From an uncultured Prevotella sp. (GTDB lineage Bacteria; Bacteroidota; Bacteroidia; Bacteroidales; Bacteroidaceae): DNA of 64,000 nt. Shown piece by piece: positions 2,452 through 53,487 of this stretch (position 1 is the first letter of the stretch; each line of letters starts with the position of its first letter). The notes beneath the pieces are model-generated. The model was given only the letters and a program-made list of their open reading frames with translations, was not told the origin of the DNA and did no database searches. The translations under genes and the position numbers were made by a program. Where the stretch lies: positions 80,304-144,303 of the forward strand of contig CAMOVK010000001.1 of assembly GCA_946627325.1 (NCBI GenBank). Reading direction: 5' to 3'.

Positions 2452-4266
2452 TTATTCGTCTTCTTTATACATCTCGTCGATAACTGCTGCATAGTTTTTC
2501 GCCAATACCTTACGGCGAATTTTCAGTGTATTAGTCAGTTCTCCTGTCTCCATAGAGAAGTTATTGGGCAAGAGTCGGAATCGTTTTATCTTTTCATATC
2601 CTGCCAATCCTTGCTGCAACATATCGATTCTTTCAGTCATCATTCGCATTATCTGACTATTTTTGCAGAGGTCTTCCCTACTATTGAACATGATATTATT
2701 GTCGCGTGCATATTCTTCGAGAAGTTGGTAGTCGGGCACTATAAGCGCAGAAACGAACTTCCGTTGGTCGGCGATGACTGAAATCTGCTCGATAAACTTA
2801 TCTACCAACATTCGTGACTCAATCATTTGAGGCGCGATGTATTTACCATTTGAAGTCTTAAAGAGGTCTTTTATGCGCTCTGTAAGGAAGAGTTCTTTTC
2901 CCTCGATGAAACCAGAATCGCCTGTTTTGAAGTATCCTTCCTCGTCGAAAACTTTCTGATTGAGGTCGTCGCGTTTATAGTATCCTCGTGTGATAGTTGG
3001 TCCTTTGAGCATTATTTCGTTATCGGCACCAATCTTTACCTTGATGCTATGAATAGGTATGCCTACGCTTCCTACTGTGAAAGGTTCTTTCATGTGCAGA
3101 CACGAAACTGTTGCCAGACTTTCAGTCAACCCATATCCCACCATCATAAAGATGCCTATTGAATGTATAAATTCCTCTACTTCGGGAGCTACTCTCGACC
3201 CAGCAGTGGGGAAGAAGTGTGGTTTATCAAGTCCTAACTGCTGTCTAATCAGTTTGAAAAGTGTTCTGTTAAAGAATGCGTATTCGGCTGCGAGTAGCGG
3301 AGAAGGGCGTTTACCTCGTGCCAAACACTCTATGTTGTACTTTCTTCCTACTCGCAATGCTTTCTTGAAGAGTGCTTTCTTTGCTGTTCCAGCATTATCT
3401 ATTTTGGCTTGAACACCAGCATATACCTTTTCCCAGAAACGCGGGACTGCACACATACACGTTGGTTTTGTCTCTCGCATTGACTGTTGTATCTCTCGCG
3501 GATTTGTGTTTACAATAAACTCTGCGCCTTCTGTCATTGCGAAAAAAGTCCATCCTCGTTCAAAGATGTGTGTGAAAGGCAGAAAGTTCATCACTCTGTC
3601 TGTTTCTCCTACAGGCACACATCGGTGGTTTGCATCAAACGCCGCATGATACTGTGAGTATGTCAACACTACTCCTTTCGATTCCCCTGTAGTGCCAGAG
3701 GTGTATAGTATGTTTGCTATGTCATCGTCGTTTGCTTCTTTATATAATTGTTCCACCTGTGGTTGTCGAGGGCATCCGTCGCCGAGTTTAATAAATTCGT
3801 CGAACGTAATGGTGTTTGGGTCTTGTTTATTTATGTTGACTGCGCGGTCGAAAACAACTATTCTCTCGAGTGTAGGACAAAGTGGCAATGTTCGGTAAGC
3901 CTTGTCGTATTGTTCCTGTTCTCCTACGAACAGCAATCTTATGCGTGCATCGTTAACGATAAATTGCAGTTGTTGCTCCGAGCTTGTTGAATAGAATGGC
4001 ACTGTCACTGCTCTTATTCCAAATGCTCCAAAATCGACAAAGTGGCAGTGGATTGAGTTTTGTGCGAACACACCGATATTCTCTTGTACGGCAATGCCGA
4101 GATTAAGCAGTGCATTAGACACTTTTATAACGTTTTCCGAGAACTCTTTCCACGACATTTTTTTCCACTCTTTGCTTCCGAATTCCTGGTAATTGAGTGC
4201 TGTTTTTTCGCCATATTTCTCGGCTTGTTTTATGACCAATTGTGAGAGATGACAATGTGTTTGCAT
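2452..4266 (-). CDS. long-chain fatty acid--CoA ligase (AMP-binding)
   Basis: YTSGTTGESKG, GYGLTES, FKTGD, RIKDLFKTSNGKYIAP. Confidence 0.92.
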   Translation of the reverse strand: MQTHCHLSQLVIKQAEKYGEKTALNYQEFGSKEWKKMSWKEFSENVIKVSNALLNLGIAVQENIGVFAQNSIHCHFVDFGAFGIRAVTVPFYSTSSEQQLQFIVNDARIRLLFVGEQEQYDKAYRTLPLCPTLERIVVFDRAVNINKQDPNTITFDEFIKLGDGCPRQPQVEQLYKEANDDDIANILYTSGTTGESKGVVLTYSQYHAAFDANHRCVPVGETDRVMNFLPFTHIFERGWTFFAMTEGAEFIVNTNPREIQQSMRETKPTCMCAVPRFWEKVYAGVQAKIDNAGTAKKALFKKALRVGRKYNIECLARGKRPSPLLAAEYAFFNRTLFKLIRQQLGLDKPHFFPTAGSRVAPEVEEFIHSIGIFMMVGYGLTESLATVSCLHMKEPFTVGSVGIPIHSIKVKIGADNEIMLKGPTITRGYYKRDDLNQKVFDEEGYFKTGDSGFIEGKELFLTERIKDLFKTSNGKYIAPQMIESRMLVDKFIEQISVIADQRKFVSALIVPDYQLLEEYARDNNIMFNSREDLCKNSQIMRMMTERIDMLQQGLAGYEKIKRFRLLPNNFSMETGELTNTLKIRRKVLAKNYAAVIDEMYKEDE

Positions 4267-4318
4267 GGTTTTGTTGTTTTTATGCTTGGTTTATTATTGT
4301 CTTTTCTAATTCTTTCAG

Positions 4319-5929
4319 TTATCGTGCGAGCCAGGCTTCAGGGTTCAGAAGCGATGTTTCCTTTCTCAATTGGAATTGCAGTATATTGTCCGACGCTACT
4401 GTTCCTATAACCTGCCTTGCAGAAACTTTTTGTCCACGAGACACATTTACTGATTTCAGATTTACATATACCGACAGGTAGCTTCCGTGTCGGATGAGTA
4501 CTCCCCATTGCCCTGCTGCGTTGAACACTCCCGACACTTCTCCGTCGAAAATTGAACGAGCCTGACATCCTGGTTTTCCTTGTATGTTAATGCCTCTGCT
4601 GTCGAGTTTTACTCCTTTCAGTCCTTCGACGTTATATTGTCCGAAGTGTGTCACTATCTTGTAACTTCCTGTTATCGGCATAGGCAATCTTCCTTTGTTG
4701 TTTACGAAAGACCCGTTTAGTTGTCTGTCAGCCGATGTTACAAATCCAGCTGATGCATTTTCGTTTTTAGCGTTTTCTATTTCTTTTTTCTGTCGTTCAG
4801 CCTCTGCTTTTGCTTTTCTTTCTGCTGCTTGTCTTTCTGCTTCAGCCTCCTTTGCTTCTTGTTGAGCCTTTATTCTCGCTTGTTCATCGTTTTTCTTTTT
4901 TGCTTCTTCTGCGCGTTTTTTTGCTTCTTCTTCTCGTGCTTTTGCTTCTTTTATTCGTCGTTCTGCCTCTCTTGCTGCCTTTTCTGCTTCTGCTTTTTTC
5001 CGTGCAATTTCAGCCGCTCTTTTCTTTGCTGCTTCTGCTTCTGCTTTCTTTCTGGCTTCTTCTGCTGCTCGTTTGCGTGCTTTTTCCACTTCAATTGCTA
5101 CCAATCGGTCAATTTCAGCGTTGAGTTGTGCTTGTTTTTTCTGTTGTTCTGCAATTATATTTTGTATTGTTTTCTGTTGTTGTTGCAGTGATTTCACTAC
5201 CGATTGTTGTTCTGTTTGCTTTTGTTCGAGGTCGGCTTGTGCTCGTTTTCCCTGTGCTATAAGACTGTTTTTCTGTTGTCTTGCGGATGCTAACTCTTGT
5301 TTTTTCAGGTTTATTTCTTCTTGTTTAGTCTTTATCATTTCTCCTTGCGCACGTTGATACGCTGCATATTCGCGTACAAACCGTAGTCTGCGATAGGTCT
5401 GTGTTAGGTTTTTAGCACTGAATATAAACAATAGTTTGTCTTGTATTTTTCGGTGTTTTGACATATATTGCACCGATTTGATGTATCGTTTTTTTCTTTC
5501 TTGCAGTTGTTTTTCGAGGTTTGCCAGTTGCGTTTCGAGCATCTCGATATTTCCATTCAGTTTTTCAACATCGGTCTGATAGTCGGCTATTGCTTGTTTT
5601 TTTGCATCGATTTCGCCGTTGATTGTCAATAGGTTTTTAAGTCTTTTTTCTACATCAGCTTTGTTCGACTGCAATTGCCGTTGTTGTTCTTTAATCTTTT
5701 GTTGTACCTGTGTCTTTTGGTTTTGAAGTCCTTTTATTTCTTTTGTTTGGTATTGTGCTGCGTTTGGTTTCTTTTGTTGCTTTTTTGCAGGTTGTTTTTT
5801 GTTTGTTGTTTTCTTTGTTTGCGTTGTTGCGGGCTTTTTCTGTCGCACTGCTGACGTCTTTTTTTGTTGGGCGTTAACTGTCAGTGCGATGCAGATTATG
5901 CACAATATGGTTGTCAGTCGGGTTTTCAT
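4319..5929 (-). CDS. EnvC-like murein hydrolase activator (coiled coil plus degenerate M23 domain)
   Basis: Signal peptide, long coiled coil, C-terminal GRLPMPITG...GINI...VIGTV...LQFQLR lacking the M23 zinc-binding His residues. Confidence 0.88.
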   Translation of the reverse strand: MKTRLTTILCIICIALTVNAQQKKTSAVRQKKPATTQTKKTTNKKQPAKKQQKKPNAAQYQTKEIKGLQNQKTQVQQKIKEQQRQLQSNKADVEKRLKNLLTINGEIDAKKQAIADYQTDVEKLNGNIEMLETQLANLEKQLQERKKRYIKSVQYMSKHRKIQDKLLFIFSAKNLTQTYRRLRFVREYAAYQRAQGEMIKTKQEEINLKKQELASARQQKNSLIAQGKRAQADLEQKQTEQQSVVKSLQQQQKTIQNIIAEQQKKQAQLNAEIDRLVAIEVEKARKRAAEEARKKAEAEAAKKRAAEIARKKAEAEKAAREAERRIKEAKAREEEAKKRAEEAKKKNDEQARIKAQQEAKEAEAERQAAERKAKAEAERQKKEIENAKNENASAGFVTSADRQLNGSFVNNKGRLPMPITGSYKIVTHFGQYNVEGLKGVKLDSRGINIQGKPGCQARSIFDGEVSGVFNAAGQWGVLIRHGSYLSVYVNLKSVNVSRGQKVSARQVIGTVASDNILQFQLRKETSLLNPEAWLAR

Positions 5930-5950
5930 TTCGATGTTTATGGTGTAATT

Positions 5951-6835
5951 TTACAGACTTGTAAGTCGTTTTATAGCTTGTTCGACGGTTATTTGTTTGT
6001 ATTTTGATGATACGCTTGTATTTGTTTCGAAGTCTCCGTTTGTATCGATTTTTTTCATTTTTAGCGCCACTGAGAATGATGTTTTTTTGCCCATTTCATC
6101 GCTTGCTGTAAGTGTGAAACTATGATTTTGTGGATATTGTTTTGTTCCTACAGCGGTGAAATTGCTATATTTCCATTGCAACGATGATTGTCCATTTGTT
6201 CCGCTTTGATATACAGCGTCGGTTTGTGTGATGCGTCCTGTATTTTTGTCTGCGGTCCATTGATATTTCATTTTTCCATCTTCGAGTTTCACTGGTACGT
6301 TGTTTTCTGCGTTTGTCAGTTCGGCTGCAAATTGTTCGAGCATTTGCTGACTTACTCTTTGTGTTCCTGGCATAAACAGTTGGTTCCAGAAGAGAGCTTG
6401 TAGCGAATAGAAATTGAGTCCGTTTCTACGTAGGAAGTCTATTTCATTGTATGTTGCTTTGATATATTCCTTTGTTGGTCTGATTAGTATCAGCACGTAT
6501 TGTGGTGTCATTTCGATGCGTCCTACTTCTACGAGTCCGAGTGGTGCGAGTTGTATTCTTATCACTTCGTCGCGTCGCATATGTATTTGTCCGTCAACTG
6601 ATATGTCGCGGTCTCCTTTTTTTAGGTTGAAATTGATTTTCGATGAGATGTTTTTTGTATATACGGCGTTGTCTGACACCTTTTCTACGAATGTCAGTTC
6701 TGCCTTTCTATTGCTGTTGTCAGCGGTTGTATGTGTTTGTGTTTCTTTTCCGTTGGTTGTAGCCTGTTGTTGCGTTCCGCAGGCAATAAAGATTGCGGAC
6801 AGTGCTGCTGAAATGATAAAAAATTGCGGTTTCAT
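5951..6835 (-). CDS. DUF4292-like lipoprotein
   Basis: Lipobox (FIAC), FYSLQALFWN motif; usual Bacteroidales dut-TPR-DUF4292-envC gene order. Confidence 0.75.
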   Translation of the reverse strand: MKPQFFIISAALSAIFIACGTQQQATTNGKETQTHTTADNSNRKAELTFVEKVSDNAVYTKNISSKINFNLKKGDRDISVDGQIHMRRDEVIRIQLAPLGLVEVGRIEMTPQYVLILIRPTKEYIKATYNEIDFLRRNGLNFYSLQALFWNQLFMPGTQRVSQQMLEQFAAELTNAENNVPVKLEDGKMKYQWTADKNTGRITQTDAVYQSGTNGQSSLQWKYSNFTAVGTKQYPQNHSFTLTASDEMGKKTSFSVALKMKKIDTNGDFETNTSVSSKYKQITVEQAIKRLTSL

Positions 6836-6851
6836 CGTTGTTTTTTACTTT

Positions 6852-8594
6852 TTATCTGTTCTTTTTGAGTTTTTCTTCTATTGTTTTTGATGTTTTGTCT
6901 TTGTTGTATGCTTTTTGCCAATAGTCGATAGCCTCATCTTTTAGGTTGCAGTGATAGTATATGTCTCCTGCATGGTCGTATTCTGTTGCTGAAATTTCTT
7001 TCGACTCTGCTATTGCTCTGTCGATATATGCTCTTGCTTCTTCGTATCTTTCGAGTTTGAAGAGCACCCATGCGTAAGTGTCAAGATACGTTGCATTTGT
7101 TGGTTCAGCCTTGATTGTCTTTTGACTCATTGATTCTGCCTTTTCGAGGTTTTCTCCTTTTATTGCGAGGAAGTAGGCATAATTATTCATGCATGAATAG
7201 TTTTCCTTGTTCCAATGCAGGCTGCTGTCGTATGCGGCAAATGCTTCGGCGTATCGTTCTTTTGAGTGTAGTATGTCTCCTATGAGTGCATAGAAGTCGG
7301 ATACTAATTTCGGGTTGTCGTTTGAGTCCACTTGATCTATTCCTTTTTGGAATGTTTCGAGTGCTCTGTCGTCGTCGTTGTGTGTGTAGTAGTTCAGTCC
7401 GAGGAAGTAGTAAAATGCCATTTCATCGGGGTTGTAGTTTATTCCTGCCTGGCATACTTTTGTCAGTTCGTTTTCGTCTCCTTTCTCCCAGAGTTGCATT
7501 GCCAATCTTATTCTCGCCGTTGCGAAGTCTGGTTGCAGTGCGAGCAGTTGACGATTTATGTTTATCATTGTGTCGATTGGTGCTTTACGCATTTCGAGAT
7601 ACTGTGCTTTAGTCAGCCAGAAGTTGAACTCTGATGGTTCTTTTGCTATCAGCGAGTCGAGCAATTGGTATATTTCCTCGTGGTTTCGGCTGGTAATTTC
7701 GTTGTTTCTGATGTATTGTGTTAGCACTTCGTCGCGTGTGCTCATTGGTATTTTCTTGTCGAAAATTATGTCGCGTGCTATGGAGTCTGCCTGTTGTTTA
7801 TTGTTGGTTTCATTATAATAGTCGATGAGTGCTATTCGTGCTGCGATATTGGTAGGTTCGTTTCGCAGTATGAAAGTGTATTCCTCGTATGCCTCGTTTG
7901 CTTTTCCGTCGTTCATGAGCCAGTTTCCGAGCAGCACTCGATAGTTTGGTTCGTAGGGGTGTGTATCAACAAACTTGCGCAGCGTGGCGAGTTCTTGGTC
8001 TTTTTGCCCCATCATCGAGTAGGCCTGCATCTTCATAAACGTGGTTGTTTCCTTGCTTCCATTGATTGCTTCCATTCGATTTACCACTCTCAAGAAATTG
8101 TCGTAGTCTTCGAGGTTGATGTAGATTCGAGAAAGGATGTCGAGCGTTTCGTCGCTTGGGTTAGGCATTGCAGCGAGTCGCTCGTACACTTCGGCTGCCT
8201 CCTTCAGTTTCATTTCTCGAATGAGTACTCTGCCATAATTGTCGATATACGATTTGTTTGTGGGGTCGAGTGTGTATGTTTTTCTGATATATGCCATTGC
8301 CTTATCCACGCTATCGCACATTTCGCAATAGTTGGCAAGGTAGTCATAAACTTCTGCTATGGTTGTGTCTAGCGCCAGACATTTGTAGAACAGTGTTTTT
8401 GCCGAGTCGATATTGCCTGCAAGGTGTTGGTTGATTGCTTCGTAGTAGGTCTCGTCGAACAGGCGTCGTTGCTCTGGCGAGAGTTGTTGACGCATAGGTC
8501 TGACGACCGTCTGCTTGGCACTTCCGCATGCCAACATTGCTATCGCTACTACGATTACAAGCGATGAAATGGCGAAAAATCTGACGTTTCTCAT
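6852..8594 (-). CDS. tetratricopeptide-repeat lipoprotein
   Basis: Lipobox (LAC); multiple TPR-like helices; NNYAYFLA...YLDTYAWVLFK C-terminal TPRs. Confidence 0.88.
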   Translation of the reverse strand: MRNVRFFAISSLVIVVAIAMLACGSAKQTVVRPMRQQLSPEQRRLFDETYYEAINQHLAGNIDSAKTLFYKCLALDTTIAEVYDYLANYCEMCDSVDKAMAYIRKTYTLDPTNKSYIDNYGRVLIREMKLKEAAEVYERLAAMPNPSDETLDILSRIYINLEDYDNFLRVVNRMEAINGSKETTTFMKMQAYSMMGQKDQELATLRKFVDTHPYEPNYRVLLGNWLMNDGKANEAYEEYTFILRNEPTNIAARIALIDYYNETNNKQQADSIARDIIFDKKIPMSTRDEVLTQYIRNNEITSRNHEEIYQLLDSLIAKEPSEFNFWLTKAQYLEMRKAPIDTMININRQLLALQPDFATARIRLAMQLWEKGDENELTKVCQAGINYNPDEMAFYYFLGLNYYTHNDDDRALETFQKGIDQVDSNDNPKLVSDFYALIGDILHSKERYAEAFAAYDSSLHWNKENYSCMNNYAYFLAIKGENLEKAESMSQKTIKAEPTNATYLDTYAWVLFKLERYEEARAYIDRAIAESKEISATEYDHAGDIYYHCNLKDEAIDYWQKAYNKDKTSKTIEEKLKKNR

Positions 8595-9096: not shown

Positions 9097-9145
9097 GTTA
9101 AAAGTTATGATTAGAACAAAATTCGGTATCTATTTTTTCCATTTT

Positions 9146-9233
9146 GGAAAGTATGCTTTTTCGGCTCGGAAAGTATGTCTTTTCAACTCGGAAAGCATAT
9201 CTTTTCGACTCGAAAAGACGTGCTTTCCAAATC
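9146..9233. repeat. array 1: four 22-bp palindromic units
   Basis: GGAAAGTATGCTTTTTCGGCTC / GGAAAGTATGTCTTTTCAACTC / GGAAAGCATATCTTTTCGACTC / GAAAAGACGTGCTTTCCAAATC. Confidence 0.93.
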
Positions 9234-9342
9234 GAGTTTGTAAACTGCTGAAAATCAACGGATAAAGAATCTGATTTGAGCAGAAATTATTTCCGGCAAA
9301 AAAAACATATCAACTTTCGGACAATAATCGGAAAACAATCAT

Positions 9343-9350
9343 TAAATTTG
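9343..9350 (+). promoter_or_regulatory. Bacteroidetes -7 promoter box (TAAATTTG) for folP-cdaA
   Basis: TAnnTTTG match upstream of the ATG at 9375. Confidence 0.6.
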
Positions 9351-9374
9351 CATACCATTTCATTTCTATCATTG

Positions 9375-10238
9375 ATGACCACTTTTTCTCCAGTCACTAC
9401 AATCTGCTGCCGCGGCAGACTTCTCGACTTCTCGACGCCTATTGTCATGGGCATACTCAACACGACGCCCGACTCGTTTTTTGCCGGCAGTCGCCGACAG
9501 ACGGAACACGAGATAGCCGCAAGGGCTGACGAAATCGTCGCTCAAGGAGCAACCATCATCGACATAGGAGCATTCTCCACACGTCCTGGTGCAGACATAG
9601 TGAGCAAGGAAGAGGAAACAGCCCGACTCCGACGAGCGTTGGAAATAGTCAGGCGATGCCAGCCCGATGCCATCGTAAGCATAGACACCTACCGCCCTGA
9701 AGTGGCACAAATGTGCGTAGAAGAATATGGTGCCGACATAATAAACGACGTGTCAGAAGGCGGACTTGCAACCACAGCCGACAGTAATGCGAAACAAAAG
9801 CACAACGAAGTGCCTCAAATGTTCAAAACGATAGCACAACTGAGAGTGCCTTACATTCTGACATCGGTACAAAACAACATAAACACCATGCTCAAAAGAG
9901 CAGCCGAAGAAATAACAATGCTACATAATCTGGGAGCAACCGACATCATCTTCGACCCCGGACTGGGATTTGGAAAAACACTCGACGACAACTATAAAAT
10001 ACTCAACCAACTCGAAAAGACAACCATTCTCAACAAGCCATTGCTCGTAGGAGCATCGCGAAAATCAATGATATGGCGACTGCTCGACACCGATGCAAAC
10101 AACGCACTCAACGGAACAACCACCATCAACACCATCGCACTCATGAAAGGAGCATCCATACTACGCGTTCACGACGTAAAAGAAGCGATGGAATCGATAA
10201 AAATCGTAGAAAAACTAAAAACGTCAAACAATATATAA
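9375..10238 (+). CDS. folP: dihydropteroate synthase
   Basis: MGILNTTPDSF, DIGAFSTRPG, DPGLGFGK, GASRKS, LRVHDV. Start placed at the ATG at 9375, downstream of the -7 box. Confidence 0.95.
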   Translation: MTTFSPVTTICCRGRLLDFSTPIVMGILNTTPDSFFAGSRRQTEHEIAARADEIVAQGATIIDIGAFSTRPGADIVSKEEETARLRRALEIVRRCQPDAIVSIDTYRPEVAQMCVEEYGADIINDVSEGGLATTADSNAKQKHNEVPQMFKTIAQLRVPYILTSVQNNINTMLKRAAEEITMLHNLGATDIIFDPGLGFGKTLDDNYKILNQLEKTTILNKPLLVGASRKSMIWRLLDTDANNALNGTTTINTIALMKGASILRVHDVKEAMESIKIVEKLKTSNNI

Positions 10239-10269
10239 CAAAACGAAAAACCATACACATTATTAAATT

Positions 10270-11049
10270 ATGCTATCATTTCTCGACTTCGGAATAAAAG
10301 ATTTCATCGACATTTTGCTCGTAGCAACTCTGCTCTACTACGCCTACAGGCTGATGAAAGAGTCGCGCTCGATAAACATATTCACTGGAATACTCATCTT
10401 CATAATCATCTGGCTCGTTGTAAGTCAGATACTCGAGATGAAACTTCTCGGAGCAATCCTCGACAAAATGGTCAGCTACGGAGTCATAGCACTACTCATT
10501 ATCTTCCAAGACGAGATAAGAAAATTCCTCAACACCATAGGTGCACATCAGCGATTTAATCGCGTACTGCGATGGTTACGACCACGACACGGAAAAGAAA
10601 CGACCGACATGAGCAGCTATATGCCAGTAGTCATAGCCTGTATGAATATGGCAAAAGGAAAAGTAGGAGCACTAATCGTAGTCGAACGAGAAACCCCATT
10701 AGACGAAGTAATAAAATCAGGAGAAACAATCGACGCAAACATCAATCAAAGACTCATCGAAAACATATTCTTCAAGAACTCACCGCTACACGACGGAGCG
10801 ATGATTCTACGTCGGAAACGCATCTGCGCCGCAGGCTGCATACTGCCCGTTTCCCACAACAACGACATACCAAAACACCTCGGACTGCGACACCGAGCAG
10901 CCTTGGGAATGGCAGAAGAAAGCGACGCAATAGCAATCGTAGTCTCTGAAGAAACAGGACACATAGCTGTAGCAATGAATGGAACCATACGAGAAAGACT
11001 CTCGGCAGAAGAACTCGAAAGCCTACTCACACAAGAATTAACAAAGTAG
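10270..11049 (+). CDS. cdaA: diadenylate cyclase CdaA
   Basis: Three N-terminal TM helices; SPLHDGA and GLRHRAA motifs. Confidence 0.93.
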   Translation: MLSFLDFGIKDFIDILLVATLLYYAYRLMKESRSINIFTGILIFIIIWLVVSQILEMKLLGAILDKMVSYGVIALLIIFQDEIRKFLNTIGAHQRFNRVLRWLRPRHGKETTDMSSYMPVVIACMNMAKGKVGALIVVERETPLDEVIKSGETIDANINQRLIENIFFKNSPLHDGAMILRRKRICAAGCILPVSHNNDIPKHLGLRHRAALGMAEESDAIAIVVSEETGHIAVAMNGTIRERLSAEELESLLTQELTK

Positions 11050-11119
11050 CATTTTGTAGTTTCAGCGTTTTTTCGTACCTTCGCGCCCCAATTTATCAAG
11101 TAACATTTAAGTAATAATT

Positions 11120-12316
11120 ATGAAGATTTTAGTACTCAACTGCGGATCGTCGTCAATCAAGTATGCACTCTACAACATGGACGATCGCTCAGTTATGGCG
11201 CAAGGAGGTGCCGAACGCGTTGGATTAGACGGAGCATTCGTCAAAGTGAAACTGCCAAACGGCGAAAAACGAGAAATAAAACACGACATTCCAGAACACA
11301 CAGCAGGCGTAAATTTCATCTTCAAACTGCTTACCGACCCTGAAATAGGAGCAATCAAATCATTAGACGAAATCGACGCCGTAGGTCATCGTATGGTACA
11401 CGGAGGAGAAAAGTTTGCAAAAAGCACACTTATAAACGACGAAGTACTCGCCGCATACGAAGATTGCATAGAGCTGGCACCACTACATAACCCAGCAAAC
11501 CTAAAAGGAGTGAAAGCCGTTCAAGAACTAATGCCAAACCTGCCACAAGTAGGTGTGTTCGACACAGCATTCCATCAAACCATGCCACAACGTGCTTTCA
11601 TGTATGCACTGCCTTACGAACTATACGAGAAATATGGCGTACGCCGCTACGGATTCCACGGCACAAGCCACAGATATGTGTCAGCACGCGCTTGCGAATT
11701 CCTCGGACTTGACTACCAAAAACAACGCATCATCACTTGCCACATAGGCAATGGAGGCTCAGTGGCTGCCATCGAAAACGGAAAGAGCATCGACACATCA
11801 ATGGGACTGACACCGCTCGAAGGCGTAATGATGGGTACTCGAGCCGGAAACGTTGACGCAGGAGCAGTGCTCTATCTGCAAAACAAACTCGGACTTAATG
11901 CCGATGCCATGTCAGACCTGCTCAACAAGCAGAGCGGAGTGCTGGGTATCAGCGGTGTTTCGAGCGACATGAGAGAAATAGAAGCACAGTCGGCAAAAGG
12001 GAACAAACGCGCACAACTCGCACTCGACATGTATTTCTATGCCGTAAAGAAATACGTTGGAGCTTACGCAGCAGTAATGGGAGGATGCGACATCATAGTA
12101 TTCACAGCCGGAGTGGGCGAAAATCAGAGCGATTTGCGTGAAGAAGTGTGCCGTAACATGGAGTTTATGGGAGTGAAAATCGATGTGGAGAAAAACCTAA
12201 ACACACGAGGAGAAGAAGCAATCATATCTACCCCAGACAGCAAAGTAAAGGTCGTTATCATACCAACCGACGAGGAACTGATGATAGCAACCGACACTAT
12301 GGAACTCGTGAAATAA
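11120..12316 (+). CDS. ackA: acetate kinase
   Basis: LVLNCGSSSIK, HRMVHGG, APLHN, FDTAFH, YGFHGTSH, TDEE. Confidence 0.97.
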   Translation: MKILVLNCGSSSIKYALYNMDDRSVMAQGGAERVGLDGAFVKVKLPNGEKREIKHDIPEHTAGVNFIFKLLTDPEIGAIKSLDEIDAVGHRMVHGGEKFAKSTLINDEVLAAYEDCIELAPLHNPANLKGVKAVQELMPNLPQVGVFDTAFHQTMPQRAFMYALPYELYEKYGVRRYGFHGTSHRYVSARACEFLGLDYQKQRIITCHIGNGGSVAAIENGKSIDTSMGLTPLEGVMMGTRAGNVDAGAVLYLQNKLGLNADAMSDLLNKQSGVLGISGVSSDMREIEAQSAKGNKRAQLALDMYFYAVKKYVGAYAAVMGGCDIIVFTAGVGENQSDLREEVCRNMEFMGVKIDVEKNLNTRGEEAIISTPDSKVKVVIIPTDEELMIATDTMELVK

Positions 12317-30473: not shown

Positions 30474-30478
30474 ATATC

Positions 30479-45154: not shown

Positions 45155-45193
45155 AATAAAAAGCGAAAGCTAAGACACTTTTGCTAACATATC

Positions 45194-45231
45194 AATAATG
45201 GCTGCTGAAGTATGTTTCAGCAGCCATTATT
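45194..45231. terminator. intrinsic terminator between convergent genes, likely bidirectional
   Basis: Perfect 16-bp inverted repeat AATAATGGCTGCTGAA-gtatgt-TTCAGCAGCCATTATT. Confidence 0.85.
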
Positions 45232-45275
45232 TTAATAAAGTAATATAAGAACGTAAGGGTAACAGCTAAAACTTC

Positions 45276-46610
45276 CTACAGCAGCGCCTGTAGGGTTGTC
45301 AGTCGATAGCTGTTACTACCTTTTATGAGTATAAGTGCATTGATGATATTTTCTTGCTTCAATGCTTCTGCTGCTTCATCGGTCGTTGCGAACTTCCGAT
45401 AGTGACACTTTATAGGCATGAAAGCCTCGCCTATCAACCACACATTCTTTACCGACATTTGTCGTATGTGATTGACCAAGCGTCGGTGTTCCTCATCGCT
45501 TGCCGCACCGAGTTCGTTCATTTGAGCCAAAATCATCATCTTATTGTCGGCTTCAATCTGTTCGAAATTGTCCAATGCTGCCGCCATCGATGTTGGATTA
45601 GCATTGTAGGCATCGACTATGAGCTTATTGCGATTGGTCTCTACCAGCTGCGAACGATTGTTAGTAGGTTGATATTCTTCGAGAGCCTCACATATCTTCT
45701 CTGCCTCTATGCCGAAGTTCACTCCTACTGCAACAGCAGCCAGCACATTGTTTATATTGTACTTGCCTATCAGTTGTGTCCTCACCGTGTTCCATTTACC
45801 TGCCGAAGGGTCGTTGTCGCTATCTATTATGGGTTTCTTCCATCGCATTTCCAACATCGGACTGCAGGCAGTCACCTCGCCAACGATACATCCTTCGGAG
45901 TTCTGCAGATTGGTAGAATAAGGTGTAACCCACACGTTGTCGGGCAGTATCTCCATAAGATTATCGTCGTCGGCATTGATGAAGATGGTTGATTCTTCGC
46001 GTCGTGCGAGGTCGGAGTATAGTTCGCCTTTTGTTTTCACCACTCCCTTGAACGAGCCAAAGCCCTGCAAGTGAGCCAGTCCCACATTGGTTATCAGTCC
46101 ATGTGTAGGTTCGGCAGTCTCAGCGAGGGTTTTTATGTCGCCTGGATGGCTTGCCCCCATCTCCACTATTGCTATCTCCGTTTGTCGGTCTATACGCAGC
46201 AGCGTTTTCGGAACACCCACATCGTTGTTGTAGTTGCCTTCGGTAGCCATCACGTTGTATTTCTTTCTCAGCACTGCAGCAATGAGTTCCTTTGTCGTAG
46301 TTTTGCCATTAGTCCCCGTAATGCCTATTACTGGTATGTCAAACTGTCTGCGATGCTCTCTTGCAAGGTCTTTATAAGTCTGCAAGGCATCTTTTACCAA
46401 TATATATCTGTCGTCGCCTTCTTCGACATAGTCACCGTTGTCGATTACGGCATATCTGCAACCACTCTCCAATGCCTTATGCGCGAATTTGTTTCCATCG
46501 AACGATTCGCCTTTCAAGGCTATGAACATTGAGCCTTCGGGGCAGTTTCGGCTGTCTGTTGTAAGGCTGCCACACTGACAATATAATGAATACAATTCCT
46601 TGATAGTCAT
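45276..46610 (-). CDS. murF: UDP-MurNAc-tripeptide--D-Ala-D-Ala ligase
   Basis: [33 protein letters not shown]. Confidence 0.96.
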   Translation of the reverse strand: MTIKELYSLYCQCGSLTTDSRNCPEGSMFIALKGESFDGNKFAHKALESGCRYAVIDNGDYVEEGDDRYILVKDALQTYKDLAREHRRQFDIPVIGITGTNGKTTTKELIAAVLRKKYNVMATEGNYNNDVGVPKTLLRIDRQTEIAIVEMGASHPGDIKTLAETAEPTHGLITNVGLAHLQGFGSFKGVVKTKGELYSDLARREESTIFINADDDNLMEILPDNVWVTPYSTNLQNSEGCIVGEVTACSPMLEMRWKKPIIDSDNDPSAGKWNTVRTQLIGKYNINNVLAAVAVGVNFGIEAEKICEALEEYQPTNNRSQLVETNRNKLIVDAYNANPTSMAAALDNFEQIEADNKMMILAQMNELGAASDEEHRRLVNHIRQMSVKNVWLIGEAFMPIKCHYRKFATTDEAAEALKQENIINALILIKGSNSYRLTTLQALL

Positions 46611-46751
46611 AGTTTATTTATATGATTTATTTTTGCAAAGGTAAGAAAAAGCCAGCTTTTCTTCCAATCTTATCATCATTTATGCAGGAAAAGCGACTGT
46701 ATTTTCAATCAAGAGCCTTGCCTTTCCACATATTTTTCTTACTTTTGCCGT

Positions 46752-48089
46752 ATGAATTGGCAACAACTGATAACCAACAAGCGTCTCGGTCAGGAGTATC
46801 GACACGCTGACCGCTTCGACGACCGTTCTGAGTTCAAGCGCGACTACGACCGTCTTATCTTCTCGGCTCCTTTCCGCCGACTTCAGAACAAGACGCAGGT
46901 ATTCCCCCTTCCTGGCAGCATTTTCGTTCACAACCGATTGACCCACTCACTCGAGGTGTCGTCGCTGGGTATGTCGTTAGGCAACGATGTGTCACGTATT
47001 CTCGTCGAGCGCCACCCCGAATTGCGTGGCACCCTGTTCGAAGAGATTGGCACCATCGTTTCTGCCGCCTGCCTTGCTCACGACTTGGGTAATCCTCCCT
47101 TTGGTCATTCTGGCGAGAAAGCCATTCAGACCTATTTTACCGAAGGCAGTGGCAGCGACCTCCAGAAAGCCGTATCGCCTGAGTTTTGGAACGATGTTAC
47201 TCGCTTCGATGGCAATGCCAACGCCTTCCGTCTGCTCACCCATCGGTTCTGCGGGCGTCGCGAGGGCGGCTTCGTCATGACCTATAGCACCCTTGCCAGC
47301 ATCGTGAAGTATCCTTTCTCATCGTCTGTTGCCACGAAAAACAAGTTTGGTTTCTTCACTCCCGAAGCCCCACTCTATCGTCGCATAGCCGACGAACTAT
47401 GCATACCGCTTATTAGCGATGCCAGTTCCAACGGCGAGCGATGGGCGCGCTATCCGCTCGTCTATCTTGTTGAAGCAGCCGACGACATCTGTTACGAGAT
47501 TATGGACATAGAAGATGCCCACAAACTGAAGGTTCTCTCCTTTGAAGAGACGTGCGACTTGCTACTCGGTTTCTTCGACAAAGAACAGCAGGAAGCCATC
47601 GTTCAGCGCATCGACGAGGAACATATCACCGACAACAACGAGAAAATCGTTTATATGCGAGCCCGCGTCATCGGTTTGTTAGAGCGCGAATGTGTCAAGG
47701 CGTTTGTTGAAAACGAAGAGGCTATCCTTGCTGGCACATTCAGCGGCAGCCTGATAGAAAACATCTCAGAGCAGCCTCGCGAGGCTTACCAGCGCTGTAC
47801 GCGCCTGTCCGTTGAACGCATCTATAAAAGTAAACCAGTACTCGATGTCGAACTGTCGGGTTACAAAATAATGGAAACGCTCATGCAAGTGATGGTCGAT
47901 GCCGTGCTCTACCCCGACCGCTACTATTCGAAACAACTCATCATGCGCGTCTCCAGCCAATACGACATCCATGCCCGCGACCTCGAAACGCGCCTAATGG
48001 CTGTCATCGACTACATCACTGGCATGACTGACGTATATGCTCTCGACGTATATCAGAAGATAAACGGCATCTCCCTGCCAGTAGTCTAA
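46752..48089 (+). CDS. dgt: dGTP triphosphohydrolase (HD family)
   Basis: RRLQNKTQVF, HNRLTHSLEV, AHDLGNPPFGHSGE, EAADDICY, DYITGMTD. Confidence 0.93.
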   Translation: MNWQQLITNKRLGQEYRHADRFDDRSEFKRDYDRLIFSAPFRRLQNKTQVFPLPGSIFVHNRLTHSLEVSSLGMSLGNDVSRILVERHPELRGTLFEEIGTIVSAACLAHDLGNPPFGHSGEKAIQTYFTEGSGSDLQKAVSPEFWNDVTRFDGNANAFRLLTHRFCGRREGGFVMTYSTLASIVKYPFSSSVATKNKFGFFTPEAPLYRRIADELCIPLISDASSNGERWARYPLVYLVEAADDICYEIMDIEDAHKLKVLSFEETCDLLLGFFDKEQQEAIVQRIDEEHITDNNEKIVYMRARVIGLLERECVKAFVENEEAILAGTFSGSLIENISEQPREAYQRCTRLSVERIYKSKPVLDVELSGYKIMETLMQVMVDAVLYPDRYYSKQLIMRVSSQYDIHARDLETRLMAVIDYITGMTDVYALDVYQKINGISLPVV

Positions 48090-48138
48090 AAAAAAATCTT
48101 TCAACATATTGTAACACAACAAGTTACTCTTTCGACGT

Positions 48139-48226
48139 GGAAAGCATATCTTTTCGCATCGGAAAGCATGTCTTTTGGACTTGGAAAGCACGTCTTTCCA
48201 AAACGAAAAGACGTGCTTTCCAAAAT
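48139..48226. repeat. array 5: four 22-bp palindromic units
   Basis: GGAAAGCATATCTTTTCGCATC / GGAAAGCATGTCTTTTGGACTT / GGAAAGCACGTCTTTCCAAAAC / GAAAAGACGTGCTTTCCAAAAT. Confidence 0.93.
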
Positions 48227-48473
48227 CGTTAGAATAGATATACAAAATCAGAACTATAAAAAACAACCTACCGATTGTGGAAAATTAAAAAATTACCTCT
48301 TATATTTTGATAATTTATTTTATATTTCTATCTTCGCACAAATTTTGCTTTTCGGCAACATGATTTTGCAAAATCGCGATTAAGCGAGCACAGTCGGAAC
48401 TCGTTCTGAACATGTCGAGCGTTAGCAATTTAAGCAAATTAACAACCAAAATTCACTATAAACTAATAAAACG

Positions 48474-51400
48474 ATGAAAAAGATTCTTACTCTACTCGTT
48501 GTAGCAATGGTTTCGTTCATAGGAGCCAACGCACAACCACGGGTAAAAGGACCTGTTGCACCGATGAAGAACACTTCAGCAGCTGCATCTTTTACCTACG
48601 AAAACCTGAAATCTACCAACTATTTGCCTCTCGTTCAAGGACCTAAGAAGGCAAAGTTTGGCGGCACTGACGGATTTGTCGATGCGTATTCATTCATACT
48701 CTACGACAATCGTTTTCGCAGCTACGTGCTATCAAAGTTCAACACAGAAGACCCTACCGCCTACAAACGCGTTCGCGACTATGGTACAACTCAGGGCTCT
48801 GACGTGTTCCAGACAGCCACATTCGTAGGCGACCGCATCTTCGCAGAGCGTTGCTATCTGCAATGGATGGGCTACTGGCAGCCACGTTCCTTCGGATGGC
48901 TCGACCCAGAGACAACAGAGTTTGAAGAAGTATTCTCATGGACAGACTCCTACTACACACTCTTCCGCGACATGACCTACGACCCCGTTTCCGACAAGAT
49001 TTACCTTATCGACGCTGAAGACGGCTTCGAAGTGTCTCACATATACATGATAGACCCCAACAACCCACAAGCACCAGAAAAAGTGTGCACCATGAACTAC
49101 GGTCTGACAACGATCGCTGCCGACAACGGATACCTCTATGGTATCATACCTAACAGCCTCGACGAGAATAACAAAGACCAGTATGGCCTTTATCAACCAA
49201 AAGCCAACACACGTCTTGTGAAAATCAATACCGCATCGATAAACAAGGCGACACAGACCTGCGAAGTGGAAGAAATCCGCGCTTCAGGCATGAACATTTC
49301 CATCGCTTTCAATGATGGACAAAACCGCCCATCAATCTATTGGCAGTCAATGGAGTTCGACAAAATCAACCATCGCCTGTGGTGGATGACTACGACTCAC
49401 AACGGACAGGCTCTAGCCATCGAAATCAACCCCAAGACTGGCTCCATCATCTCTCGCACAAACTTCACTACAAACCCTCAGATGATAGCACTCGCCATCC
49501 CTTATCAGACAGCAGCCGACGGAGCACCATCGTATGTGCGCAATCTGAATGTGACACCTGGAGCACAAGGAGCATCATTAGCTACATTCACATGGGACAA
49601 CCCATCGCAAACCTACATGAACGAAAACCTCACTCAGCTGACAGGAATAAAGGTATATCGCGACGGAGAACTCATCCAAACCATTCCTTCGTTCACACCA
49701 GGTCTCACAATGTTATTTGAAGACACTGACGTGCCTACTGGAAACCACAACTACAAATTCCTCGCCTACAACAACGCTGGCGACGGAATCTACAAAGACA
49801 TCGACGTATTCGTTGGTCACGACACTCCTGCAAAGGTTGATATGCTCACTCTCGTAGCTGAGGGAACAGGCGGAAAAATCACATGGAATGCACCTACAGA
49901 AGGACGCTACGGTGGCTGGATAGATGCATCTACACTGAAATACAAAATCGTCAGACTGCCAGACAATGTAACAGTGGCAGAAGACCTTACTGCAACATCG
50001 TTCGTTGACAATAATATCACTCGCTTCGATGGCTACTCTTACGTTGTCACACCATCTACCGCTGACGGCGAAGGCGAATCAGCAACATCGAACGTACTGC
50101 CTCTCGGACCAGCACTCGACGTTCCTTATACCAGCGCATTGAACACACAGCAACTCTTCAATATGTGGACCGTTATCGACAACAACCAAAACGGACTGGG
50201 CGACGGTGTATCATGGGAATTTGACGCATTCAGAAAAGTGGCTCGCTACTATGGCAACCTCAATCAGGCAAACGACTATCTCATCTCGCCGAAATTCAAC
50301 TTCGAACCAGGAAAAGAATATCAGATACGCTATACATACTACTCGATGAACTGGGTTCATCCTGTAACAATGGAACCACTGATGGAGGAAATGGAAGTGT
50401 ACTACGGAACCGAGCCTACAGCAGAAGGCATGAACCAATTGCTATTCGCTACTGGCGAATTCAACACAGGTTCTGAAATCTACCTGTATGGCAAGAACAA
50501 CTTCACTCCACAGACTACCACCGGACACGTTGCATTCAAGTCCGTTACTCCTGGCGACCGCGGAATAACATTCCTTAAAGACTTCTCTATCCGCGAACAC
50601 AGCACAACCGACCTTTCTGTAACAAAAGTAAACATCTCAGGAGTAGCTAATGCCAACGTTCTGCAAGAAGCTAACGTAGAAGTAACCAACGAAGGTACAC
50701 AGACACAAAGCAACTACACCGTGCAGATTATCGACGCAGAAACAGAGCAAGTGCTTGGCACCGCTAACGGAGTATCAGTCAACCCTGATGAGCACGTAAA
50801 CGTCAAAGTAGGATGGATGCCAACAGTTTCAGGCAACATGAATCTGACTGCACGAGTTGTTCTCGAAGGCGACACTTATCCCGAAGACAACACTTGGAAA
50901 TCGCCAGTTGTCGTAAACGTAACCGAAAGCGACGGAGTTCTATGGTTCGCTGCCAACGAAGACCACAAGAGATGGGACGAAGGCTACAACGATTGGCTGG
51001 GTATAGGATGGAACGGACCAATGCACCTGACCTATAACTACAGTCAAGTGCAAAACCTCTTCCTTGAGTCAGAACTGCGCAAAGACGTGATATTGGAAGG
51101 ACTGCAATTCGTTTATGACGGCAACGCTGGCTTAAAAGGCATGTCGTTCGGACTGAAAGTGAGCATCAAGAAGACCGACCGCACTTCGATGGAGAACGTA
51201 AACGACGCTGGTATGGGCGACTTCGATCCTAGCTCAGGTTGGACAGTAGTATTCGATGGTGAAGTAACATTCGAAAGCGCAAGCGAAAACAGCCCGATGA
51301 CAATCATGTTCGACACACCATTCAAGTATGAAAGTGGCAACATCATTGTTAAATACGAGCGCACAACAACAGGCGCTATCGATGGAGAGATAGCTCCCTA

Positions 51401-51767
51401 CTGGCACTTCTACCAGTACGGCTACGACAAACCACGTCGCTTAGCATTCTATCACGGCAATTCTACCAACGTAAACTCCGACATGGTATTTACCGACTGG
51501 GAATGTCCACACACTCGATTCGCATACTCTCTTAACCCAGAATCAGTGAAAGGCACAGAGAATGCAGGACTCACTATAGCAATCGATGGCAATAACCTAA
51601 GCTTCGGTAAGGCTTGCAACGTTGAAGTATTCAACACTGCTGGTGCAAGAGTGATGAGCGCACAAGGTGTAAACCGCATCAACACCCGCTCACTGGCAAA
51701 GGGAATCTACACCGTAAGAGCAACCATCGACGGCAAGGTAATCAATAAGAAAATCGCAGTAAAATGA
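48474..51767 (+). CDS. large secreted multidomain protein (propeller-like, FN3, adhesin-like, CARDB-like, T9SS CTD)
   Basis: Signal peptide; DMTYDP and SMEFD propeller-like blades; TWDNP/TWNAP FN3-like; WTVID...ANDYLISP adhesin-like; DLSV...VEVTNEG CARDB-like; KGIYTV...KKIAVK tail. Confidence 0.75.
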   Translation: MKKILTLLVVAMVSFIGANAQPRVKGPVAPMKNTSAAASFTYENLKSTNYLPLVQGPKKAKFGGTDGFVDAYSFILYDNRFRSYVLSKFNTEDPTAYKRVRDYGTTQGSDVFQTATFVGDRIFAERCYLQWMGYWQPRSFGWLDPETTEFEEVFSWTDSYYTLFRDMTYDPVSDKIYLIDAEDGFEVSHIYMIDPNNPQAPEKVCTMNYGLTTIAADNGYLYGIIPNSLDENNKDQYGLYQPKANTRLVKINTASINKATQTCEVEEIRASGMNISIAFNDGQNRPSIYWQSMEFDKINHRLWWMTTTHNGQALAIEINPKTGSIISRTNFTTNPQMIALAIPYQTAADGAPSYVRNLNVTPGAQGASLATFTWDNPSQTYMNENLTQLTGIKVYRDGELIQTIPSFTPGLTMLFEDTDVPTGNHNYKFLAYNNAGDGIYKDIDVFVGHDTPAKVDMLTLVAEGTGGKITWNAPTEGRYGGWIDASTLKYKIVRLPDNVTVAEDLTATSFVDNNITRFDGYSYVVTPSTADGEGESATSNVLPLGPALDVPYTSALNTQQLFNMWTVIDNNQNGLGDGVSWEFDAFRKVARYYGNLNQANDYLISPKFNFEPGKEYQIRYTYYSMNWVHPVTMEPLMEEMEVYYGTEPTAEGMNQLLFATGEFNTGSEIYLYGKNNFTPQTTTGHVAFKSVTPGDRGITFLKDFSIREHSTTDLSVTKVNISGVANANVLQEANVEVTNEGTQTQSNYTVQIIDAETEQVLGTANGVSVNPDEHVNVKVGWMPTVSGNMNLTARVVLEGDTYPEDNTWKSPVVVNVTESDGVLWFAANEDHKRWDEGYNDWLGIGWNGPMHLTYNYSQVQNLFLESELRKDVILEGLQFVYDGNAGLKGMSFGLKVSIKKTDRTSMENVNDAGMGDFDPSSGWTVVFDGEVTFESASENSPMTIMFDTPFKYESGNIIVKYERTTTGAIDGEIAPYWHFYQYGYDKPRRLAFYHGNSTNVNSDMVFTDWECPHTRFAYSLNPESVKGTENAGLTIAIDGNNLSFGKACNVEVFNTAGARVMSAQGVNRINTRSLAKGIYTVRATIDGKVINKKIAVK

Positions 51768-52237
51768 AAAAAACAATAGTATCGATGCTTGTAGCGCTCA
51801 CTTTCGCAGTGGGCGCACAGGCACAAGACAAAGTCGTAGTCAACAAACATAATGGCGACTCGCAGTCGTTCGAAATGTCGAATGTAAGAAAAATCACACT
51901 CTCGGAAACGGGAATGAACATTATAGGTACTGACGGAACAACAAATGCCACAGTGAACTACATCGACATTAAAACCATTACGTTTGAACTCGTGAACGGT
52001 ATCGAACAAGTAGTCAACACCGAACAGGGTAAACTGACTCTTCTGAAAGACGGAAACTATATCCGCATCAAAGGATTCAATGGCGAAAACGGCAAAGTAG
52101 CAATCTATAAATCCGATGGTACAATGGTAGATACTGCCACCTTCACAGGCGCAGATTACGCTATCGGAATAGAAGACTTGCCTCGCGGATTGTATATACT
52201 CAACGTAAACGGACAATCACTCAAATTCACACGCTAA
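51764..52237 (+). CDS. small secreted protein with T9SS-type CTD
   Basis: Signal peptide; tail LPRGLYILNVNGQSLKF; ATGA overlap with the upstream gene. Confidence 0.75.
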   Translation: MKKTIVSMLVALTFAVGAQAQDKVVVNKHNGDSQSFEMSNVRKITLSETGMNIIGTDGTTNATVNYIDIKTITFELVNGIEQVVNTEQGKLTLLKDGNYIRIKGFNGENGKVAIYKSDGTMVDTATFTGADYAIGIEDLPRGLYILNVNGQSLKFTR

Positions 52238-53487
52238 TGAAAAGGTTTATTTCATTATTACTTTTTGCACTCATAACCATTGCCGGGATGGCTCAAACCA
52301 ATCCCAACCGACTAATCGTAGTCGATAAAAATGGCGGGTATGAGGGATATGTAATCAACCGATTAGACAGCATTGTTTTCAGAACAGTCAGTGGCGAAGT
52401 GAAAGCCAACATAGATTTTCTCGGTTACGAGAAAAACGCTCAAGGCAACGACGTCGTTAAATGCAACGTTACACGCACTGCAGCCTGCAACGGTTTCAAA
52501 ATACTTGTGCATCCTAAATCGGTTATTGACCAGTACAAAAACGACGACGCACTTGCACGTTATGTCGATAAAAACGTACAGAACACCTACTATCAAGACT
52601 TCGCCAACGCTGAGCTGACAGGATTCGACTTCGAACTACAAGCCAATACGGCTTACTCTATAGTAACCGTTGGAATCGACGAATATGGCATAGCAAGCGA
52701 CGTATCACGCACCGACTTCACCACTCCGGCTGCAAACGTGGTAGGAAACCCATCTGTCACATGGGAAGTAATTGAAAACACGAAGAATTCGTTCAAACTC
52801 GAAGTTGTTCCAAACGCCGACTGCGCTGGTTACTACGTATGCCGTTTTGACAAGGGAACAGCCGAAGAGCAGTTCAACACCTTTGGTGCTTGGTTTGGAT
52901 TTGCCAACATGGGCGACATGATTAAGTCTTGGAGCCGCCAGAAGTACACAACTCAAGAAGTACACGAATGGACTGATTGCTCCCCTTCTACAGCCTACGA
53001 GGTATATATTCTGCCTGTTGATGTAAACGACGAATATGGCTCAATGGTCATTGCAGAAGTGACTACAGCAGGTCAGGGAGGTACTGGCACAGCAGAAGTG
53101 ACTATTACTATCGGTGATTTTGGATACGAATTAGACGATAATGGAACAAAGATGTATTGGCAAAAGGTAACATACACACCTAACGACCAGACACTTCTCT
53201 TCCGCGATATGGTTATCACAAAAGAGGCTTACGACAATGAATTCGGCGACGAAGGCATACTCAACTACCTCAAGGAAGACAAACCATACGCTGGTTGGGA
53301 CCAATACACCACCGATGAAGCACAATGGAACGCTGAACCAAACACCGACTACATCGCTTTTGCTATCGCAAAGAATGCCAACGAAGAATGGGGACCACTC
53401 GCAAGAAAAGAGTTCCACACTCCTGCTGGCACAGGCGTAGCTCCACGATTTAAAAGCAACAACAAACTGACACTTATCCAACGATAA
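52237..53487 (+). CDS. secreted hypothetical protein with three FN3-like repeats
   Basis: Signal peptide; repeated (A/P)(N/S)T.Y.(I/V)... motifs; TAATG coupling to the upstream gene. Confidence 0.7.
   Translation: MKRFISLLLFALITIAGMAQTNPNRLIVVDKNGGYEGYVINRLDSIVFRTVSGEVKANIDFLGYEKNAQGNDVVKCNVTRTAACNGFKILVHPKSVIDQYKNDDALARYVDKNVQNTYYQDFANAELTGFDFELQANTAYSIVTVGIDEYGIASDVSRTDFTTPAANVVGNPSVTWEVIENTKNSFKLEVVPNADCAGYYVCRFDKGTAEEQFNTFGAWFGFANMGDMIKSWSRQKYTTQEVHEWTDCSPSTAYEVYILPVDVNDEYGSMVIAEVTTAGQGGTGTAEVTITIGDFGYELDDNGTKMYWQKVTYTPNDQTLLFRDMVITKEAYDNEFGDEGILNYLKEDKPYAGWDQYTTDEAQWNAEPNTDYIAFAIAKNANEEWGPLARKEFHTPAGTGVAPRFKSNNKLTLIQR

Follow-up and report, generated by a model that had tools for sequence, protein, structure and literature searches.

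A strand-specific A/T skew anchored to 22-bp repeat arrays in the genome of an uncultured Prevotella

Strand skew in bacterial chromosomes is normally explained by one replication origin together with gene direction. A stretch of 64,000 nucleotides from an uncultured Prevotella (assembly GCA_946627325.1, contig C1, positions 80304-144303; termed the window below) raises the question of whether short repeats can set skew as well. The window carries five arrays of 22-bp units, and an earlier reading of the letters alone (the sequence-only reading) had claimed that composition follows a sawtooth phased to these arrays, the forward strand being rich in T and G to the left of each array and in A and C to the right, as if a strand-specific process ran from the arrays in both directions. 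The sawtooth is confirmed to be real and genome-wide. An array-anchored, bidirectional, strand-specific process is supported in outline, because gene strand, flanking-gene layout and misassembly fail to explain the flip. The chemical description did not hold: the flip at silent sites is one of A and T, while G and C follow gene strand only, and a keto model fits far worse (in a poorly converged fit).

The evidence comes from the whole host assembly (1.42 Mb in 54 contigs, 73% complete), which was scanned for arrays with a weight matrix. Genes were called with a simple open reading frame (ORF) model (1080 genes; no Prodigal), and skew was measured at fourfold-degenerate sites (AT4 and GC4). After 11 arrays near contig ends were left out of the flip test, AT skew was found to shift upward from left to right at 77 of 81 testable arrays, with a mean shift of 0.60 compared to 0.009 ± 0.047 (maximum 0.11) in 200 random sets. 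The sequence-only reading had proposed to plot skew against array distance separately for each gene strand, and this reveals the flip on both strands: AT4 passes from -0.22 left of the arrays to +0.54 right of them on plus-strand genes, and from -0.54 to +0.23 on minus-strand genes. GC4 lies near -0.22 and +0.21 according to gene strand and stays so across the arrays. Intergenic DNA has skew of the same sign, 0.13-0.16 at 1-4 kb. Moreover, of the 68 upward flips in the genome, 57 have an array no more than 1.5 kb away, and several of the rest fall within 2 kb of one or coincide with a degenerate array.

Some sites depart from this pattern. Upward flips without a detected array nearby occur at about 30000 on C1, 2200 on C23 and 10000 on C7, and are possibly scars of lost arrays. 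Four arrays show a reversed flip or none (C2:62104, C35:2915, C22:2470 and C18:3343). The flank at C22:2428 is near-identical to that at C16:27986, which suggests a recent copy whose surroundings may have yet to equilibrate. On contig C2, GC content is lower (41.6%), arrays are sparser and the sawtooth is much weaker than on C1.

It is scarcely credible that the sawtooth stems from gene strand, expression level, inversions or misassembly. Divergent gene pairs are indeed the commonest array context (31/84), and gene strand adds some skew, with an R2 of 0.15 for AT skew per gene (513 genes) compared to 0.50 for array distance (with the distance curve fitted on the same genome). However, the flip occurs in all four layouts of the flanking genes (-+ 26/27, +- 17/18, -- 17/19, ++ 17/17) and within genes. 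With gene fixed effects over 579 genes, the within-gene AT effect is +0.32 ± 0.05 at 1.5-3.5 kb, and the GC4 effect is +0.074 ± 0.014 inside 750 bp. The skew therefore goes beyond gene strand, as had been claimed. Strain contigs, about 0.4% divergent, span arrays 1 and 2 and array 3 colinearly without rearrangement, so that misassembly is excluded at arrays 1-3, and the dcw genes, whose intact order had been cited against inversions, form a canonical run. Strain single-nucleotide polymorphisms polarised by hand (40 of 203 rows) gave, on the inward strand, 8 transversions to T versus 1-2 to A and 7 C>T versus 10 G>A; these are too few, are confounded by gene strand, and are not used as evidence.

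Within the window, raw keto skew (G+T-A-C) is positive in all five intervals that had been described as left flanks (0.08 to 0.26) and negative in four of the five right flanks. The sole exception is 21.3-24.2 kb (+0.06), which the sequence-only reading had itself called weak. Array 3 is the cleanest same-strand test, as it lies in an all-minus-strand dcw run. On the forward strand, AT4 to its left is +0.04 in ftsZ, +0.02 in ftsA, -0.61 in the ORF at 24229-25146, -0.85 in murC and -0.68 in murG; to its right it is -0.16 in ftsW, +0.48 in murD, +0.21 in mraY, +0.15 in murE and -0.47 in ftsI. A gradient is also seen inside a single 844-aa ORF (42620-45154), where AT4 by quarter is +0.07, -0.13, -0.21 and -0.32. 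Coordinates are collected in Table 1.

Table 1. Arrays and compositional footprints in the window (silent AT skew of arrays is strand-adjusted; AT4 of footprints refers to the forward strand)
Feature	Position	Strand	Context	Silent AT skew
Array 1	9144..9230		four 22-bp units, between dut (-) and folP (+)	left -0.56, right +0.47
IHF-like flank motif (presumed label)	9241..9258	-	one side of array 1, makes element polar	
Array 2	21138..21225		between gyrB (-) and ftsZ (-)	left -0.40, right +0.10
Array 3	27728..27815		between murG (-) and ftsW (-) in dcw run	left -0.67, right +0.46
Array 4, degenerate	37911..37999		3 units scored, between mraZ (-) and glsA (+)	left -0.34, right +0.37
Array 5	48137..48223		between dGTPase gene (+) and 1097-aa ORF (+)	left -0.26, right +0.05
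Left footprint, array 1	2452..8594	-	silent sites T-rich on +	AT4 -0.37 to -0.77
Right footprint, array 1	9276..15013	+	silent sites A-rich on +	AT4 +0.58, +0.74, +0.48, +0.26
Left footprint, array 2	15906..20980	-		AT4 -0.30, -0.60, -0.47
Both footprints, array 3	24229..33230	-	one co-oriented operon	AT4 -0.85 (murC) to +0.48 (murD)
Footprints, array 4	33384..42544			AT4 -0.33 to -0.49 left, +0.39 to +0.65 right
Footprints, array 5	42620..53487			

The scan found 96 clusters, of which 92 have at least two units and 77 have exactly four, with a period of 22 bp. Each unit is a 19-bp near-palindrome, YGRAAAG-N5-CTTTYCR, followed by a 3-bp spacer. Different unit variants are combined within the arrays, in mixed orientation (median nearest-neighbour identity 84%), and opposed orientations are lacking in at most 13+5+2+2+2+1 of the 77. 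In a search of the assembly for period-22 repeats, 87 of 92 matches were known arrays. Most arrays (83/92) lie outside called ORFs, and several of the ORFs that hold the other nine are short. The element is polar, with an IHF-like motif 12-29 bp off one end and an AATAG-type motif past the other, and its A-tracts are phased every 11 bp. The flank motif (TTGA-www-TCAR-N4-TTA type) is a putative IHF site by its resemblance to the IHF consensus; the strict form of this consensus is matched at 17 of 77 arrays, always on a single side and in 14 cases at the same offset, and a looser motif is general. Arrays have a median spacing of 11.6 kb and are far more evenly spaced than chance: none of 56 spacings falls below 6.5 kb, compared to 23.5 expected under random intergenic placement (minimum 14 in 2000 shuffles). 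At C25:340-471, a six-unit array holds an exact 44-bp duplication, which shows unit gain through slippage or unequal exchange.

The footprint has a defined shape. On the strand that reads 5′ to 3′ away from an array, silent-site T drops from about 0.29 to 0.17-0.19 and A climbs from 0.34 to 0.43. AT skew is zero at the array, ramps over about 1 kb, holds a plateau at 1-3.5 kb and is gone by 5-8 kb, while silent-site GC peaks at the array (0.46 within 1 kb, 0.375 beyond 3 kb). The reach, about 5 kb, matches half of the array spacing. By the Akaike information criterion, fixed-reach models (75889 and 75979) fit better than an origin-like plateau (76697) or a linear barrier (76972); because sites are not independent, the narrow margin between the two leading models should be given little weight. 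A reversal near the midpoints between arrays had been described, and a sharp switch there is indeed part of the best model, but reach is mainly set by distance from the array.

The chemistry of the footprint is confined largely to A:T pairs. The swing at twofold sites is 1.1 log units for T/C and 1.3 for A/G, as large as that at fourfold sites, and for G/C it is about 0.1. Dependence on neighbouring bases is not strong (1.4-2.7 log2 units in all 12 contexts), and an origin of the skew in ultraviolet dimers or motif methylation was rejected for want of strong context dependence. Strand-biased transversions of the SOS polymerase Pol V are described as strongly context-specific (bioRxiv 10.1101/2020.01.15.908301), unlike the host bias. 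The A:T pair behaves as if it were unstable when T is on the outward strand. Both the central GC peak and the skew follow from a single curve that describes extra T loss, spans about -1.25 kb to +5 kb and reaches 2.4-fold at +0.75 to +2.5 kb; this model is ahead of A-gain and T-to-A models by 155 log units. Proteins are affected as well: compared to genes transcribed towards arrays, those transcribed away use more Thr (67.8 versus 61.1 per 1000), Lys, Asn and Ile and less Ser, Val, Cys and Phe, as mutation pressure predicts.

Like replichore skew, the sawtooth is a silent-site skew that strand-specific mutation would fix and that changes sign at a defined site. It differs in its period of about 11 kb, its restriction to A/T, its decay with distance and its position over an intact long-range GC skew. 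Net GC4 skew keeps its sign along C1 across 13 arrays (pieces -0.05, -0.12, -0.10 and -0.10), and net GC skew is +0.09 on C2 and +0.075 on C3. Left and right AT skew are equal in size under either sign of the long-range GC skew (-0.32/+0.31 at 20 arrays, -0.25/+0.20 at 19 arrays) and nearly equal on both sides of the polar element. Arrays as main origins or termini are ruled out, since GC skew does not change sign at them and fixed-reach models fit better. The dnaA gene was not found in the incomplete host assembly and its neighbours are likewise missing; 39 of 40 relatives carry it, and its absence is, as far as can be told, an assembly gap.

The host itself appears from its sequence to be a deep-branching Prevotella without close sequenced species, because its MurG is at most 74% identical to those of relatives, and the sequencing runs that carry its DNA are gut or sheep gut metagenomes wherever labelled. 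At least half of the test stretch is present in 13 runs, and a search by DNA listed no RNA run among them. The exact two-unit motif was found in none of 400 congeners and had no match in genome and viral contig collections; the one match in metagenome contigs is 100% identical to host contig C19 and is not independent. A looser AAAG-N5-CTTT tandem is found in 115 of the 400 congeners, 34 of which have at least 24 matches. Arrays of about four 22-bp units with unrelated sequences stand at 17 of 80 murG loci. One such locus (L008) has an array of other sequence after the cluster, matching the place of array 2, and a 22-bp array just upstream of murG, as array 3. Array density is 5-19 per 100 kb in three genomes sampled over 400 kb, and spacing is underdispersed at p < 0.02 in three of eight genomes tested. 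The array element is thus genus-wide in Prevotella, with sequences specific to each lineage. In G417, two unrelated 22-bp array families coexist, and of the 13 arrays in the rarer one, none comes closer than 4.3 kb to an array of the other, compared to 4.3 expected (p 0.004, with a threshold chosen post hoc).

The skew is much less widespread than the arrays. Among 12 relatives with at least two arrays, AT skew in the same direction was found in one (G419, 0.10, z 3.1, compared to 0.32, z 10, in the host). Most samples span 36-100 kb, in which a host-sized effect is detectable and a weak one is not. Silent GC is higher near arrays in 11 of the 12 (z > 2 in three, z -2.1 in one). Pooled within genes over nine relatives, the effect is +0.04 ± 0.011 for GC and +0.07 ± 0.02 for AT; G014 is opposite on both, and G019 and G009 are opposite on GC. 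Left out were five genomes with one detected array, three with fragments too short (G013, G298 and G236), and G005 and G023. A faint halo in other Prevotella is plausible, and the strong sawtooth is so far peculiar to the host lineage.

What process could leave this footprint? The reading that we tentatively prefer, at a little short of an even chance, is that the evenly spaced arrays are bound by protein and that a strand-specific process runs outward from them both ways over about 4-5 kb; its most plausible form is displacement and re-synthesis of the outward 5′ to 3′ strand, primed by a nick or a break. A dimeric protein may bind the four dyads two helical turns apart, with IHF or HU at the one-sided flank helping it to bind. 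Once a nick or break had arisen near the array, a patch would be synthesised outward on the strand reading 5′ to 3′ away from the array, possibly by Pol I or a repair polymerase that takes over from AddAB/UvrD-type processing. In the host lineage the patch would be error-prone at A:T, whether the polymerase misinserts opposite A, uracil gives rise to lesions or the exposed template is damaged. Opposite tracts would overlap at the array centre, giving zero skew and a GC peak, and if one array covers about ± 5 kb, a second nearby would bring no gain, which would account for the even spacing. Most relatives would retain only a faint GC halo from the same process. Both nick-primed strand displacement and the filling of gaps after break resection have this geometry, with one tract per strand that begins near the array and runs outward 5′ to 3′. 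Patch re-synthesis is preferred because one outward tract per strand explains the skew, the ramp and the GC peak together. In a wider picture, which we hold more tentatively still, launch sites for local bidirectional re-synthesis or recombination would be programmed at even intervals all along Prevotella chromosomes, each species with its own recognition sequences, and a mutator state would have made the tracts visible in the host.

A number of observations weigh against patch re-synthesis. Eleven of the 12 array-bearing relatives show no significant skew in the same direction, four of them at z -1.5 to -2.3, and one (G094) lacks skew despite having the same motif family, similar spacing and umuC. 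The lead of T loss over A gain holds in only 31 of 49 intervals (p 0.085, bootstrap -3 to 320), and the T/C and A/G profiles do not mirror each other exactly. Genes transcribed away from an array are skewed more (+0.5) than genes transcribed towards it (+0.2). Composition is an equilibrium and cannot tell which strand is new. Finally, no binding protein, nickase or special polymerase was found in the incomplete host assembly, and searches there for HU-HIG/HU_rel, Rep3, reverse transcriptase and Y1 transposase gave no convincing match.

Other processes may be weighed against the same data. Arrays could be auxiliary mini-origins that fire occasionally and replicate about ± 5 kb, with the outward strand as the leading strand of a different, A:T-biased polymerase. 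Even spacing and the midpoint switch favour this, as does the resemblance of four 22-bp units beside an IHF-like site to the iteron origins of pPS10, R6K, F and pSC101, which are described as having four iterons in F and pPS10, a 22-bp length in R6K and pPS10, help from IHF or HU, and lineage-specific sequences (PMC4980987). However, the host units are palindromes in mixed orientation rather than direct iterons and occur in about 90 chromosomal copies, the long-range GC4 skew keeps its sign across them, and the AT skew decays with distance rather than lasting to the midpoint. In addition, Rep3 (PF01051) was not found in the incomplete host assembly or in G014 (90% complete), with single matches in G417, G419 and G420, and mini-origins are on balance unlikely. 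It is equally unlikely that arrays drive pervasive bidirectional transcription, or anchor supercoil domains through gyrase or the nucleoid, so that an exposed non-template outward strand loses T to damage that accompanies transcription. The stronger skew of genes transcribed away from arrays and the phased A-tracts would suit this, and topological domains of about 11 kb would match the array spacing; yet genes more than 6.5 kb from an array have almost no coding-strand AT skew in either orientation, and genes transcribed towards an array keep the outward bias.

Arrays might instead be tags for uptake or transfer of self DNA, with a cut near the array, entry of one strand with fixed polarity and recombination over several kilobases, from which the even spacing, the GC halo and the strand bias would all result. 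Species-specific dialects, even spacing common to both motif families of G417 (under that post-hoc threshold), the higher GC4 near arrays in most relatives, and ComEC in five of five congeners are points in favour. Against these stand mismatch-repair preferences, which would predict a G/C skew that is nearly absent here, the failure to find ComEC in the incomplete host assembly and the lack of any Prevotella uptake-sequence paper in our literature search, and we consider such tags rather improbable. It is very improbable that the arrays act as barriers to replication forks, or as termini, and that initiation is dispersed between them. By the usual convention, the keto skew has a terminus-like sign, but of the models compared the linear barrier gives the poorest fit, the skew vanishes at the array itself, GC skew passes through without a flip, and both sides are equal whatever the long-range GC skew of the contig.

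As to candidate proteins for patch re-synthesis, PolA, an AddAB-like pair, MutS, MutL, UNG and UmuDC are present in the host assembly, so that the general repair enzymes needed are present and none is special to this genome. DinB was not found in the assembly. A umuD-umuC-like (Pol V) pair lies among core genes 1 kb from an array on host contig C22 (L186:3400-5142). Pol V as sole cause was rejected, as umuC-like genes occur in 61 of 120 congeners, including the skew-free G094. Loss of nth and mutY as the cause was likewise rejected: neither gene was found, yet the same holds for 8 of 100 incomplete congeners, and a contig edge cuts short the neighbourhood of nth. On host contig C2, right after a small HU/IHF gene, a 382-aa protein is encoded (L208:1507-2655) with an N-terminal HU/IHF domain and an otherwise unannotated sequence; it is a candidate array binder. 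A similar gene pair is found in G417 and G421. In G417, a Rep3-like gene adjoining dinB lies next to an array (C48; L181:6004-8738).

Among known repeats, REP/BIME elements, including the IHF-binding BIME-1/RIB, are dispersed intergenic palindrome clusters with an IHF-like site that are associated with RAYT. The host arrays differ in their fixed four-unit, two-turn phasing and underdispersed spacing, and no Y1 (HUH) transposase was found in the incomplete host assembly, compared to its presence in 8 of 15 congeners; REPs are not known to have a kilobase skew halo. Eukaryotic break hotspots of the PRDM9 type also have fast-evolving motifs. They resemble the arrays in their workings, with a lineage-specific motif, central GC gain and mirror-image strand asymmetry, by analogy only and with no homology claimed. 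Diversity-generating retroelements cause A-specific mutagenesis by RNA-templated copying, whereas the host footprint covers both gene orientations, and their hallmark reverse transcriptase (PF00078) was not found in the incomplete host assembly.

The closest likeness is to PINSR, which is described as a stranded, non-coding element between genes that lacks terminal inverted repeats, is largely missing from strain-specific mobile regions, and is present in 177-184 copies per genome with unknown function (PMC4755523). Both are dispersed, intergenic, stranded and non-coding, at about one per 15 kb (92 arrays in 1.42 Mb, with polar flanks, in the host); judged from the PINSR description, the 22-bp units, even spacing and compositional footprint are on the host side only. 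In G166, a polar element of about 190 bp (length by eye) has the same AAAG-N5-CTTT 22-bp core, compared to a described PINSR consensus of 188 bp. The arrays are probably of the PINSR class, judged by habit. HU-HIG proteins of Bacteroidetes are, as described, fast-diverging, lineage-expanded candidate DNA binders, which their authors judge unlikely to be sequence-specific transcription factors (PMC5499826). One adjoins an array in G419, while host matches are only its three classical HU/IHF-type genes, and weak ones.

No report of array-centred skew in bacteria was found in a search of open-access literature. The arrays add an array-anchored third layer of skew, which accounts for half of the between-gene variance in silent A/T and shifts protein composition too, and the footprint is, to our knowledge, a first functional handle on a very common, unexplained class of Prevotella repeats. 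In genomes of this kind, origins called from skew and inferences from codon bias can go wrong. If the proposed process is correct, the arrays would be a bacterial counterpart of hotspot or dormant-origin landscapes, with a sawtooth that reshapes codon and amino-acid use genome-wide.

Within the window, Rfam gave no match at gathering threshold, and five ORFs (738, 844, 1097, 157 and 416 aa, at 40328-45154 and 48474-53487) had no NCBIfam or Pfam match at the thresholds used. The window genes are ordinary core genes.

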